Origin: a virus | Lineage: Duplodnaviria > Caudoviricetes | Virus record (IMG/VR): IMGVR_UViG_3300032219_002227 | Span: 32,001-96,000 of that record | Strand: one strand, 5' to 3' | DNA: 64,000 nucleotides | Part shown: piece after piece, positions 273 to 47,213 of the stretch | Position numbering within the stretch: the stretch's first letter is position 1 | Layout of the letters: the number at the start of each line of letters is the position of its first letter | The notes under the pieces: model-generated | Database searches by the model: none | Seen by the model: only the letters and a program-made list of their open reading frames with translations | Told to the model about the DNA's origin: nothing | Position numbers and translations under genes: made by a program

Positions 273-1503
273 TGAATTTCAAGTATCATACATTGAAAAC
301 AAAAAATGTTTTTGTTGTGGTAATAATAATTTAAAAACAATATTAGATTTAGGAAATCAACCATTAGCAAATGATTATCATAGTAATTTAACATTACAGG
401 AAGAATATCCATTAAGATTAAATTTATGTGATAAATGTTTTCATTTACAGTTAAGTCATACAGTTAACCCAGATTTAATGTTTAAACATTATCTGTATGT
501 AAGTGGTACAACACAAACATTGAGAGATTATTTTGATATGTTTGCTAAAAAAACATTAGAATATAATCCTAAAGCTAAAAATATATTAGATATTGCTTCT
601 AATGATGGAACTCAACTCGATTCTTATAAAAAACTAGGATTAACTACCTACGGTATCGATCCGGCTGAGAATTTATATGATGATGCTGTAGCTAAAGGTC
701 ATAATGTTATATGTGATTACTTTAATATGGGTAATATTGATAGATTTAATGATACTAAATTTGATATTATTACTGCTCAAAATGTATTTGCTCATAATAA
801 GTACACAGTTGATTTTCTTAGATCATGTAATGCTGTAATGAATGATGAATCAGTATTGTTTATACAAACATCACAAGCAAATATGGTGTTAAATAATGAA
901 TTCGATACTATATATCATGAGCATTTATCTTTCTTTAATACTAAATCAATGAAAACATTAGTTGAAAGATGTGGTTTAGTATTGAGTGATGTATTTAAAA
1001 CAGATATACATGGTACTAGTTATGTATTTGTAATTACTAAAAAAGATTTAGGTAGAACTGGAGTACAAGAAATGTTAGAATTTGAACAAAAGAATGGTTT
1101 ATATGATGTTTTAACATATCCTCAATATGCTTTAAAATGTTACAAAGCAACTCATGATTTAAAGAATAAATTACAGGAGCTTAAAAACGAAGGATATATT
1201 TTAGTTGGATATGGAGCTGCTGCTAAAGGTAATACATTACTTAATTTTGGAAAAATTGAATTGGATGTCATTATAGATGATAACCCATTAAAACAAAATC
1301 TATACACCCCAGGAATAAATATTCCTATTCAAAGCTCTGAATACTTGGTAAATTCACTTTCATTAGTTGAAGGCAAAGTAGCTTTTATACCTTTAGCTTG
1401 GAACTTTTATACTGAGATTAAATCACGTATTAAAGCAAAAAGAGATAATCCAAACGATCTATTTATTAAATATTTTCCAACACTAGAAGTAAATGAAGGT
1501 TAA
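265..1503 (+). CDS. NDP-hexose C-methyltransferase (Zn-binding N-domain + SAM domain + C-terminal domain)
   Basis: CFCCG...LDLGNQPLAND, CDKC, DIASNDGT, NVFAH, FDTIYHEH, GYGAAAKGNTLLN are typical of sugar C3-methyltransferases. Confidence 0.9.
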   Translation: MNSEFQVSYIENKKCFCCGNNNLKTILDLGNQPLANDYHSNLTLQEEYPLRLNLCDKCFHLQLSHTVNPDLMFKHYLYVSGTTQTLRDYFDMFAKKTLEYNPKAKNILDIASNDGTQLDSYKKLGLTTYGIDPAENLYDDAVAKGHNVICDYFNMGNIDRFNDTKFDIITAQNVFAHNKYTVDFLRSCNAVMNDESVLFIQTSQANMVLNNEFDTIYHEHLSFFNTKSMKTLVERCGLVLSDVFKTDIHGTSYVFVITKKDLGRTGVQEMLEFEQKNGLYDVLTYPQYALKCYKATHDLKNKLQELKNEGYILVGYGAAAKGNTLLNFGKIELDVIIDDNPLKQNLYTPGINIPIQSSEYLVNSLSLVEGKVAFIPLAWNFYTEIKSRIKAKRDNPNDLFIKYFPTLEVNEG

Positions 1504-23805: not shown

Positions 23806-23892
23806 GCCCTTGTGGTGGAATAGGTAGACACGCAGGACTTAAAATCCTGTTCGCTGAAAAAGCGAGTGCGGGTTCGATTCCCGCTGGGGGCA
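23806..23892 (+). tRNA. tRNA-Leu(TAA)
   Basis: D-loop GGTAGAC; anticodon arm CAGGA-CTTAAAA-TCCTG; long variable arm; GCGGG-TTCGATT-CCCGC; acceptor stem has three G-U pairs; CCA not encoded. Confidence 0.9.
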
Positions 23893-23893
23893 C

Positions 23894-24544: not shown

Positions 24545-24929
24545 GGGGATAACCGGTATCGATCCGGATGTAGAGGTAATACTACATGCAGGCATTTGAG
24601 TATACTGCCTTAGAAGATACTAAACAATAAACGCTGAAGAATTATCTTCATTCACTTTCGAAGATGCAATGTCTTTCGTTGGTGCTGATTACGCAGTAGC
24701 TGCCTAATCAAACACGGGTAAGTAACCTAGGAACAGAACTACTTTGAGTATTCACGATCGACTCATTAAATAAGGACTGTGGATTAGTTTCTTGATGTCA
24801 TAAATCAAGTGGTGGAAACGACCATAACGGTCAGCCCTACTGATCAGATTCGTTCAGATCTAAGCATGTGAGACGTTAGTATTATTGTCTCTTTCGGAGA
24901 CGTGGGTTCGAATCCCACTATCTCCACCA
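24545..24929 (+). ncRNA. ssrA: tmRNA
   Basis: GGGGATA/TATCTCC acceptor with G3-U70, T-arm GTGGG-TTCGAAT-CCCAC, encoded ACCA end; ATAAAC then tag ORF 24633-24707 AEELSSFTFEDAMSFVGADYAVAA*. Confidence 0.95.
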
Positions 24930-40555: not shown

Positions 40556-40795
40556 ATGAACAACACAGAAACAAAATCAAAAGGTCGTCCAGTAGTAGAA
40601 AATTCAGCTCGTCAAATGCGCCTCGCGGCACGCGCCACAAGGGTAGCCGCCGGGGGTGAAGTTAAAAGGGGCCGTCCATCAAACCCAGAATCAGCTCGCC
40701 AACAACGCCTAGCTGTTAGAGCAAGTGGGGTTACGGTTAAAAGAGGTCGCCCGAAAATGGAAAAGCAAGAAGTAGAAGCTACTGTTGAGGCCTGA
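40556..40795 (+). CDS. Small tandem AT-hook protein
   Basis: KGRPVVENSARQMRLA / KRGRPSNPESARQQRLA / KRGRP. Confidence 0.75.
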   Translation: MNNTETKSKGRPVVENSARQMRLAARATRVAAGGEVKRGRPSNPESARQQRLAVRASGVTVKRGRPKMEKQEVEATVEA

Positions 40796-42601: not shown

Positions 42602-43921
42602 ATGGAACGTACAATCATTAGAACCAAGTATTTAAACGTATCATTAGTGCCAGGTGTATTATTCGGAGTACTGTATGAAGATCAGGAACTAGGTATAGGT
42701 ATAGGGCCAGTAGCACTAACGATTAAATTATTCAATTTCAATCGTAGACGTAAAGTAACTAAATCCAAGTACGATATAGAGGTATTTTAAGGTTAGTAGT
42801 AATAATAAAACGGAGTGGGGCAAGGCCCCATTCATATATTCAACCTATAAAATTAAAACGTATGACAACATTTGACTTATTCATCCAGAAATTTCAGCTC
42901 GGACTTGCTATTGTAGTTTACTTAGGTGTAATGTTATTGTTTATTGATTCAATATTACCTAAAAAGAGAAAAATAATAAAGTAATAGTAGTCAAAATTAA
43001 ACACGTATATTCATCTTATAAAATTAAAACATATGACAAAGAAACAATTGTTAGAAAAATTGAACAGCTCAGAAGAATTAGTAAAGATTGCTTACGTACC
43101 AGTTTCTGAAGTAATTAATTGGGTAAATGAATTAGATGAAGCCGATACTGAGGTATTTAGTAATTTGGTAAAGGAAATAGCAAGTGAAATTGCAGACCAA
43201 GGTTTGGATTTGATTGAAGATTATGATTTGGAAATGAATTACAGGGAAGTAGAATTATCAACTGTAACGTTAGATGAGGGTAGGATAGAAAGAGCAATTA
43301 AAACAGCAATTAATAATTCCAGAGATTAAAATTAATTGCTAAAAATGGATATGGGTGGCCAGAAACGGCCACCTATATTCATGTTATAAAATTAACACGT
43401 ATGACACAGTTTCAACAAGCATTAATCGCAGCATCAGAAAGTAAGTTAAACACACCAACCGTAGGTACATCAAGCGGTAACGTTGATTATTTTGGTTACC
43501 AGTTAGCGGTACACAAGTACAATTTAGGGATAATGTCTCTAGGGATGAAATGCCGTAGTATCACATTCACCCAAATTAAAAAGTACTATGGATTGACAGG
43601 TAGGACAGCTAAGGAATGCTTACCTCAAATGGAGCAGCTGATGAAACAGTATAAGGTAGCGCTTCAAGGTTACGGTGATGAAAGTATAGTTGAGGTAATG
43701 GATATGAATTCCAGAACCAATTAAAACAAAAACGGGGTGGGCGCAAGCCCATCCCTATATTTAACTCAATAAAATAATAATATATGAATATGGTTAACGA
43801 AATAATGAGCGAAGCAGGGTTAGCGATAATAACCGCGGTAGCGATATTGATGTATGCAATGATCGCCAAGCCGGAAAGTGATATCACGTTTGATGAGATC
43901 GACCGCGCGAAGCGCGGTTGA
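42602..43921 (+). other. Small early CDS (42602-42790, 42862-42984, 43033-43329, 43401-43724, 43784-43921)
   Basis: Each follows one promoter copy; 42862 and 43784 translated manually (membrane peptides). Confidence 0.65.
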
Positions 43922-44040
43922 CGAAAGTGCGAGTGATATCGATACGGTATCGATCGATAGCGATCCGATAGCGATATGATAGCGCACTGCTCCCATCCCA
44001 ACCGCGGTCCATCGACGGCCCGGGAGCGGCCCGGTAAAAA
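43830..44040. repeat. CG-rich patch of palindromes and short repeats
   Basis: GTGATATCAC, TATCGATCGATA, ACCGCGGT x2, GATAGC x3, CGGCCCGG x2, ACCGCGC-GAA-GCGCGGT. Confidence 0.8.
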
Positions 44041-44136
44041 AATGACGTATTCTCGACTCGCAACATATCTTTTACCATCGACAATATATACGCATATACT
44101 TTCACATTTTGTCAATATTTATAACAAACATATAAT

Positions 44137-44457
44137 ATGAAACGCATAATTTTAATTTTAAGTATTATTTTTACATTATCGGGTTGTTTATCATATAGAG
44201 AAGTACCTACTAGTTATCGCTCTTTAAGTCCTTTTTATCCATATTTATATGACCCGATATACGATCTTTATCCAAATCCTTACTTATACCAACGCCCACG
44301 TACTATTATTATTACTCCAGCGCCTAGACCTAAAGTTTATTACAAACAAGAACCACGTAGGAATGCATTTGGTCCAACAGCACCACCATCAGCACCACGT
44401 CCACGTCCTCAGCAAGCTCCAATTCGTACGTTCCCAAAACGCGATAACGAAAAATAG
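44137..44457 (+). CDS. Proline-rich lipoprotein
   Basis: MKR + hydrophobic + LSGC lipobox; ATATTTATA at 44115. Confidence 0.7.
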   Translation: MKRIILILSIIFTLSGCLSYREVPTSYRSLSPFYPYLYDPIYDLYPNPYLYQRPRTIIITPAPRPKVYYKQEPRRNAFGPTAPPSAPRPRPQQAPIRTFPKRDNEK

Positions 44458-44521
44458 TTTAAACCCATTTTAACCCACTTTGCAATATTTCAAAGATCTT
44501 TTTTAATAACCTCTTTTATCG

Positions 44522-45156
44522 ATGAAAAAGTATATACAAGACGAAATACTATTAACTAAAGAAGCTATCGCAGAACATATATTAAGACAACGTATCGAAC
44601 AAGCTAACCGCTATGGTCTTACGTTGGAAGAGTTTATGCAAGCCATTGTTGAGGGTAAAACCATTACCCCAATCTCTGGTTCAATATCAAGCTAATATCC
44701 AAAATTTGCCTGTCAAAATAATATAATTAATTTCCAGGTATTATGAAATTAATAACACAAAAAGAAATTAAGGATTATATAGAACTCCCAGATAATGGAG
44801 ATCCATTTCGTATACGACATGCGATTGCGTTTACATTAACTCCTATAGATGATGAACCTGGATGGGAGAAAGTTACATACTATGGATCTAAGTCAGGTCC
44901 TAATTATCAATATATTTCTCATACACAATACGGTACTCGTGTTCGTGTTAATTATAATAAAAAATAAGTTATGAAAAAGTTTATTAGTAATTTAGTAATG
45001 ATTATTGGTCATTTATTTTTTGTAGTGATACATTATTTTTCAATTAAAATTAATGGGATAGATTGGTTTCAATTTTTTTCGTTTGCTATTATTCATGGAT
45101 TATGGTATGATTTTTATTTAGATTATTTAAAAAATCGTATATACGGATCGAAGTAG
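44522..45156 (+). other. Three small CDS (44522-44695, 44743-44967, 44971-45156)
   Basis: Manual translation plus ORF track. Confidence 0.55.
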
Positions 45157-45210
45157 TAGAAGTGATAGCCGTAATGCTATGGAGATAGAAATTTAACATA
45201 TTTATCATAG

Positions 45211-46439: not shown

Positions 46440-47213
46440 ATGTCTTATTTTGATAATTACGGTGCTGATATATTTGCTGATGAGAAGATATCATTAACTA
46501 AACGAGGTCAACCACGTAAACGTAAACCAAAAGAACCTCGTATCTATTTCACCCAGGATACTGAAGATGCTATTGTAGAATATTTAGCTACTGTTGATAC
46601 TTCTGAACGTAATCGTATTTATAACGAGCGTATTGAATATGGCTTTTATAAACTAGCCGAAAATATTATTCATACGTTTAAATTCTATTACACAGATACT
46701 GATACTATTGAAGAGCTAAAACATGAAGTTATTACTTTCCTATTGGAAAAATTACACTTGTATAATCCTTCTAAAGGCAAAGCATTTTCTTACTTTGGCA
46801 CTATCGCCAAACGCTATCTTATTGTATATAATGAAAACAACTACAAGAAACTTCAGGAACGTGCTGATGTGGATGAGTCTGATGAAGATCAGATGCAGTT
46901 ATATGAGAATGATAAAAATTTAGAGAATCTATTTAATGAAAATAATTTCATGGATCAGTATATTCGATATATTGATACTCATATATACAAATTATTTCCT
47001 AAAAAACAAGACGCTCAAACAGCCGATGCAATTGTTGAATTATTTCGTAAACGTGAAACGTTAGAAATATTTAATAAGAAAGCACTATACATTTATATTC
47101 GTGAAATAACAGATGTATCAACACCTCAAATAACTAAAATAATTAAAAAATTAAAAGTAGTATACGTTCAACTATATAATGACTACTATCAACACGGGTA
47201 TATAAGGATTTAA
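46440..47213 (+). CDS. Phage sigma factor, T4 gp55-like (late transcription)
   Basis: KLAENII..FKFY...EELKHEVITFLLEKLHLYNPSKGKAFSYFGTIAKRYLI resembles sigma region 2; C-terminal HTH-like STPQITKII. Confidence 0.7.
   Translation: MSYFDNYGADIFADEKISLTKRGQPRKRKPKEPRIYFTQDTEDAIVEYLATVDTSERNRIYNERIEYGFYKLAENIIHTFKFYYTDTDTIEELKHEVITFLLEKLHLYNPSKGKAFSYFGTIAKRYLIVYNENNYKKLQERADVDESDEDQMQLYENDKNLENLFNENNFMDQYIRYIDTHIYKLFPKKQDAQTADAIVELFRKRETLEIFNKKALYIYIREITDVSTPQITKIIKKLKVVYVQLYNDYYQHGYIRI

Follow-up and report, generated by a model that had tools for sequence, protein, structure and literature searches.

The stretch of DNA analysed here (the window, 64,000 nt) covers bases 32001-96000 of a 173,246-bp IMG/VR virus record with 31% GC, on which the long open reading frames lie nearly all on the + strand. 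Because the two ends of the record overlap by 58 nt, we take the 173,246-bp genome to be a circular assembly. It belongs to a large family of uncultured freshwater phages whose hosts are probably Flavobacteria. At 23806-23893 and 24545-24929 the phage carries a tRNA-Leu(TAA) and a tmRNA (Rfam tmRNA, 69 bits) that is full-length and has a tag peptide of its own. The word ATATTTAT(A) occurs about 58 times in the whole genome, mostly on the + strand and 4-27 nt before start codons, and likely represents a phage promoter class with very short leaders.

The CpG maximum of the window lies at 43861-44040, past a terminator-like hairpin and overlapping the 3' end of a short open reading frame (Table 1). 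A first-pass annotation of this DNA had counted 26 CG dinucleotides there; we recover the same number, about 10 sd over the mean of 2.4 ± 2.4 per 180 nt. The patch has a GC content of 0.57 and a CpG observed/expected ratio of 1.8, as compared with 0.62 for the window, and it ranks second in GC among windows of the whole 173-kb genome. Outside the window, a 2-kb stretch of 48% GC at genome 12-14 kb holds the highest-GC 150-nt windows. A small GC-rich gene with three RGRP-type (AT-hook-like) repeats, at 40556-40795, forms the window's second-highest CpG peak; because it encodes an RGRP-repeat small protein, we rejected this peak near 40.6 kb as kin of the patch. GC skew changes at the patch as well, falling from about +0.3 to about 0.

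The first-pass annotation also held the patch to be saturated with palindromes. The words it listed are present (GATATC twice, ATCGAT three times, CGATCG, CCGCGG twice, CCCGGG), as are the repeats GATAGC (three times) and CGGCCCGG (twice) and the nested inverted repeats, but their density is what the dinucleotide content yields. Measured against 1000 dinucleotide-preserving shuffles, the patch holds ten 6-nt palindromes where 6.5 ± 2.4 are expected, a count that 107 of the shuffles reach, and its 4-nt value is attained in 136 of 1000. Nor are the palindromes kept in relatives: among the 6-nt set of 43928-44112, only TATATA is palindromic in 50 aligned relatives, and the others stay palindromic in just 1-7 of the 50. 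In the range first assigned to the patch, the first 90 nt overlap the 45-aa ORF, and the conserved sequence runs on past its end to 44099. The proposal that promoter usage switches exactly at the patch holds in part, as ATATTTAT boxes already occur upstream (20-33 kb, 41.5-42.1 kb).

Table 1. Positions of the features at the locus (window coordinates, except for immuto)
Feature	Position	Strand	Remarks
Terminator-like hairpin of upstream gene	43734-43764	+	9-bp stem, 7 GC pairs; runs into early-type TATATTTA box
45-aa ORF, one hydrophobic helix	43784-43921	+	3' end overlaps left flank of the patch
Variable left flank	43880-43934	.	GCGCG-rich words and hairpin ACCGCGC-GAA-GCGCGGT; sequence not conserved
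Five direct repeats of 10-11 nt	43935-43987	+	GATATCGATAC, GGTATCGATC, GATAGCGATCC, GATAGCGATAT, GATAGCGCAC
Near-invariant 30-bp core	43988-44017	+	TGCTCCCAyGCCAATTGCGGTCCATCGAyGG
Spacer, sequence variable, length fixed	44018-44046	+	CGGCCCGG twice, 11 nt apart
Conserved word GTATTCTC(A/G)AC	44047-44057	+	From alignments of relatives
P1 box CCATCGACA(A/G)TATATACGCATATAC	44075-44099	+	TATATA invariant in 50/50 relatives
ATATTTATA box and lipoprotein gene (44137-44457)	44115-44457	+	LPAM_1 signal, E 9e-5
C-rich conserved spacer TTTAAACCCATTTT...CTTTGCAA...T-run	44458-44537	+	P2 GTATATAC box at 44530-44537
57-aa 'LTKEAF' protein	44522-44695	+	Possible small DNA-binding protein
P3: third GTATATAC box, ~55-nt purine-rich stretch, ATATTTAT box	45137-45210	+	Precedes 178-aa gene
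Probable divergent sigma factor (257 aa)	46440-47213	+	In first conserved gene block after the element
ATATTTAT(A) examples	44115, 45198, 45894, 47220, 50064, 52667		
immuto ACCCGT arrays	L072:313-420 and 721-900		Two arrays

Anatomy of the conserved element

The conserved sequence is a non-coding, single-copy element of about 170 bases at 43935-44099. What precedes it varies. The terminator-like hairpin lies outside the element, and the 45-aa ORF, which found no match in Pfam or PHROG, is replaced in relatives by unrelated small genes. In many relatives the place of the left flank is occupied by 2-4 repeats of about 21 nt, of the type GCGCG..GTACAAAAA (phased A-tracts); because this flank is variable, the exact 27-mer of the window's hairpin has no copy in IMG/VR.

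The element opens with five direct repeats with the consensus GATAGCGG (TRF: period 11, 4.6 copies). Successive repeats lie one helical turn apart (11, 10, 11 and 11 nt), and this spacing is kept in relatives: across 67 distinct ones, [GT]CG[GA] recurs at -53, -42, -32, -21 and -10 relative to the core, with a peak of the autocorrelation at lag 11. The core that follows, in which the window carries the variants ATCC and CC, includes the near-palindrome CCATCGA(T/C)GG. Nearly all relatives keep an A7 tract in the spacer (44036-44042), and the P1 box in relatives carries the palindrome GTATATAC. Despite varying sequence in between, the distance from the core to the TATATAC box is 91-92 nt in all 76 of 76 loci. 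The TATATA is invariant in its place 92 nt from the core, yet the AT-richness of the box region is not unusual, because the whole genome has 31% GC.

Conservation among related phages

When the upstream gene (43401-43724) was used as query, it recovered 16 IMG/VR loci, five of them with a CpG-rich patch at the same place. A 28-nt pattern of the core finds exactly one copy in each of 55 IMG/VR contigs, and an independent pattern of the right-hand box adds 28 contigs with one or a few base differences in the core, so that the element is present in at least 83 IMG/VR contigs, one copy apiece. In the genome of the window a profile search likewise finds the element a single time, and four further complete genomes each hold the exact core pattern once. 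By contrast, none of 185,579 species genomes of bacteria and archaea (GTDB) contains the core pattern, and neither the region nor the element matches any of 50,697 cultured-phage records by blastn.

Across 83 of 83 loci, the median DNA identity to the window's element is 74.5% (covering 88% of the element), which is on a par with core genes such as the sigma-like gene (77.5%). Because stretches of the element served to collect the loci, selection accounts in part for how invariant it appears. The genes on both sides differ among relatives, and DNA homology to relatives is almost nil upstream of the element, low from 44.25 to 45.2 kb and general only from about 45.75 kb. The element is therefore an island of conservation amid variable genes. 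The first-pass annotation had made conservation of position in relatives the touchstone of its proposal; this holds strongly for the sequence element, and because its position is conserved, a cis-acting DNA signal is supported.

RNA structure and coding potential

In AT-rich genomes a GC-rich island is often an RNA gene, and the window's copy does fold better than its shuffles (z -3.25, + strand), with single-sequence minimum free energies of element copies averaging -52.5 kcal/mol. Across 51 copies, however, the consensus fold (RNAalifold) reaches just -4.1 kcal/mol on the + strand and -2.3 on the - strand, with zero compensatory pairs on either. Because no structure is shared across copies, the good fold of the window's copy reflects its GC-richness. 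The patch has no Rfam match at the gathering score or at E 10 and no tRNA match with ARAGORN, and the conservation follows an 11-nt DNA period. We consider it highly improbable, in light of these results, that the element is a structured non-coding RNA gene or leader. Coding on the minus strand, where a frame is open in 41 of 51 copies, was rejected given the 11-nt repeats, length variation by 1 nt and the lack of 3-nt periodicity in substitutions.

Boxes and genes downstream

In most relatives the P1 box is followed by the C-rich spacer of about 100 nt and then by a second GTATATAC box; here and in a few relatives, the lipoprotein gene is an insertion that parts the element from its spacer and P2. 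The layout of P3 is common to nearly all relatives, about 75 nt ahead of the conserved 178-aa gene, and its succession of GTATATAC box, purine-rich stretch and ATATTTAT box stands at the same place in about 60 loci. The purine-rich stretch could be a leader or a small RNA. At 4-8 copies per complete genome, GTATATAC is at chance level (a reversed control is equal), but four of the five complete genomes have 2-3 of their 6-8 copies in the 1.1 kb that follow the core, and the fifth has one of four there. A composite of GTATATAC plus an ATAT box was rejected as a general promoter class, since it occurs just about once per genome.

The conserved block beyond has the order T5orf172-type gene, 178-aa gene, two small genes, 257-aa protein and baseplate genes; in one contig (L096) the element stands directly ahead of it. 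The T5orf172-type protein, about 160 aa and full-length in most relatives, is truncated in the window, where a 74-aa ORF (44743-44967) matches its N-terminal part only. The 257-aa protein is probably a sigma factor, to which three weak but concordant pointers lead: Pfam Sigma70_r2 at E 0.015, an NCBIfam ECF sigma model at E 1e-4 (below the NCBIfam cut-off), and a Foldseek top list made up nearly entirely of sigma factors, at E 0.08 or above and none reaching 0.001.

The 57-aa protein is encoded at 64 of 84 loci with the element and at none of 12 related loci without it. Its invariant pattern is LTKEA...A..YG[LM]TLE, and an AF2 model (pLDDT 76) predicts an N-terminal coil and two helices, with weak structural matches to ribbon-helix-helix chains (Z 2.3-2.8). 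A ribbon-helix-helix or helix-turn-helix binder would fit this model. Searches of Pfam, PHROGs, NCBIfam, PDB sequences, Foldseek and ESM Atlas gave no usable match, and more than 1000 distinct metagenome homologues include none that is named and none with a Pfam domain. Because 24% of element loci lack it, the 57-aa protein cannot be the sole binder of the element.

Possible functions of the element

A conserved, single-copy, non-coding stretch with phased repeats and fixed spacing would most likely be a docking site for DNA-binding proteins that govern either the transition from early to later genes or the initiation of DNA replication; from sequence, we infer protein binding, promoter activity of the boxes and a regulatory role. 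Our best reading, which we favour tentatively and at less than even confidence, is a control region for the early-to-middle/late switch to which protein binds. The five GATAGCGG-type sites and the 30-bp core would be occupied by a protein of the phage or the host along a single face of the helix, the conserved A-tract would bend the DNA, and the complex would act on the TATATAC box held 91-92 bp away. This box is the first of three clustered GTATATAC boxes that head the conserved genes past the hypervariable early region, the probable phage sigma factor among them. Because the complex would act on a box heading these genes, the element would time the start of middle/late transcription, whether by activation, repression or a block to read-through, and the 57-aa protein could be an accessory or autoregulatory binder.

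Several observations point this way. The element is widespread, unique in each genome and conserved at the level of core genes between neighbours that are not; its repeats are helically phased and its core-to-box spacing is constant; it has no shared RNA fold and is not coding. Boxes at chance level genome-wide cluster just past the core, the conserved block can follow the element directly, a sigma-like gene lies 2.4 kb downstream, and the 57-aa protein co-occurs solely with the element. Against the switch stand the boxes P2 and P3, which have neither repeats nor core, so that the element is not general to its box class; a candidate binder that is missing from about a quarter of the loci and whose predicted DNA-binding fold has Z < 3 and no family match; the part that locus selection plays in the apparent invariance; and the fact that phased repeats, a bend and an AT-rich box suit a replication origin equally well. 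A functional parallel may be the phi29 p4/p6 early-late switch region, where, as would be the case here, a nucleoprotein complex on phased sites between early and late units sets the switch. There is no similarity in sequence or protein, all genes here lie on one strand, and any resemblance would be functional only.

The main rival is an iteron-type origin, which we regard as possible but rather unlikely. An initiator would bind the phased repeats and core, the A-tract would bend the DNA and the TATATA-rich box would melt, perhaps aided by transcription from the box as at T4 oriF/oriG, promoter-plus-unwinding origins that we group with the iteron type as a likeness. A single-copy site conserved like core genes, with tandem repeats at the helical turn, a bend and an AT-rich palindromic box at fixed distance, recalls lambda ori, P1 oriR and pSC101, and in some relatives the box is followed by another array of CG-rich repeats. 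Unlike those origins, the element has repeats of only 10-11 bp that are GC-rich, and an extra 30-bp invariant core with no counterpart there. No initiator gene was found adjacent to or overlapping the element: the neighbouring ORFs have no replication-family matches, and no known initiator type is as small as the 57-aa protein. Further, cumulative GC skew climbs monotonically with no switch of polarity at the element, the box region is not unusually AT-rich for this genome, and the element's close association with the sigma block and the clustered boxes suits regulation at least as well. The cultured relative immuto (NC_055915, 66.3-66.9 kb) adds a comparison that fits origin and regulator equally well. 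There, two ACCCGT arrays at 12-nt spacing (about 9 and 14 copies) flank a 300-nt purine-rich, nearly C-free centre that holds AGTATATACG; an annotated 31-aa minus-strand ORF over the first array, gp150, is probably spurious. Like the element, this region consists of non-coding, helically spaced short repeats with a AGTATATACG box, upstream of the same block (T5orf172, sigma-like gene, baseplate). It differs in its repeat word, its 12-nt period, its two long arrays and the absence of the 30-bp core, and about 25 small genes separate the arrays from the block. A shared architecture with a differing repeat word is what a co-evolving pair of binder and site, such as an initiator and its iterons, would be expected to give.

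The remaining alternatives are less probable. The first-pass annotation had raised a genome end, packaging site or injection-stop signal, in which case small terminase subunits would wrap the phased repeats, with cleavage of the DNA close by. In size (about 160 bp), clustered short repeats, bend and occurrence once per genome, the element resembles P1 pac, lambda cosB and the T5 injection-stop region, and as a unique, bent site with phased short repeats it is also like SPP1 pac. Moreover, the element lies closer to the upstream end of the contig in 53 of 55 cases, at a median of 1.9 kb (vs 19.7 kb). Unlike those sites, the element is far from the terminase genes, with TerL domain matches at genome 117.5-118.5 kb, 41 kb from the element at 75.9-76.1 kb, and fixed termini are not apparent. 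The five complete genomes all assemble as circles, with overlaps of 58-127 nt (127 nt in two of them), which we read as assembler overlaps. Contig ends lie from 2 nt to several kb away, and fall at differing places within the element in a few contigs (e.g., L036, L090); for three of the five complete genomes they are 5-12 kb upstream. We therefore rejected the clustered ends as physical termini; the clustering fits assembly breaks in the hypervariable early region, and a pac/cos-type site, genome end or injection-stop is improbable. Segregation or site-specific recombination, through a ParR/parC-like centromere, a dimer-resolution site or an attachment site, is very unlikely. The 11-bp direct repeats beside a small gene with weak ribbon-helix-helix matches do recall R1 parC/ParR and the operator arrays of omega, CopG and Arc/Mnt; as in those, direct repeats of about 11 bp, one per turn, adjoin boxes that look like promoters and a very small gene, here with a putative ribbon-helix-helix pattern. 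The core also contains a near-palindrome. However, R1 parC has two arrays flanking a promoter where the element has one array of five, the fold of the 57-aa protein is only predicted, and the element persists without this protein at 24% of loci. Integrase, resolvase and ParB_N were sought in the genome and none matched (Phage_integrase and Resolvase models), and because the core is absent from the 185,579 bacterial and archaeal genomes, there is no attB among them.

The idea of a decoy or sink for restriction and methylation enzymes drew on the many restriction-type palindromes in the window's copy, and its probability is close to negligible. These palindromes are neither enriched over shuffles nor conserved, and CCGCGG occurs three times in the genome against an estimated 2.5 or so expected from base composition. 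A QueC gene is present at genome 6966-7625, outside the window (E 9e-37), and immuto replaces all G with 7-(formylamino)methyl-7-deazaguanine, fdPreQ1 (bioRxiv 10.1101/2023.04.13.536721). By analogy with this cultured relative, the phage probably replaces its guanine with a 7-deazaguanine; because a TGT-family Pfam model detected no DpdA in the window's genome, the case for replacement rests on QueC and immuto. With guanine replaced, a decoy would probably be unnecessary. The same pathway may bear on the cytosine-free early genes.

Replacement of guanine also enters a bolder proposal, which we consider a long shot: a sequence-specific site that would join replication and late transcription, on DNA in which 7-deazaguanine takes the place of guanine. 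An origin or clamp-loading site at a fixed distance ahead of the first late-type box would do in one fixed place what nicks and replication forks do as the mobile enhancer of T4, and recognition of the G-rich repeats could distinguish incoming, modified DNA from DNA newly synthesised.

Implications for the phage family

The 28-nt core pattern is a sharp marker of the lineage, with one match per genome. The element itself sits between the hypervariable early cassettes and the conserved block of sigma and structural genes, and would offer a handle on the timing of the programme or the start of replication in a phage family without an experimental system. If the DNA carries 7-deazaguanine, as that of immuto does, a G-rich site of this kind would lend itself to testing how modified major grooves are read by proteins.
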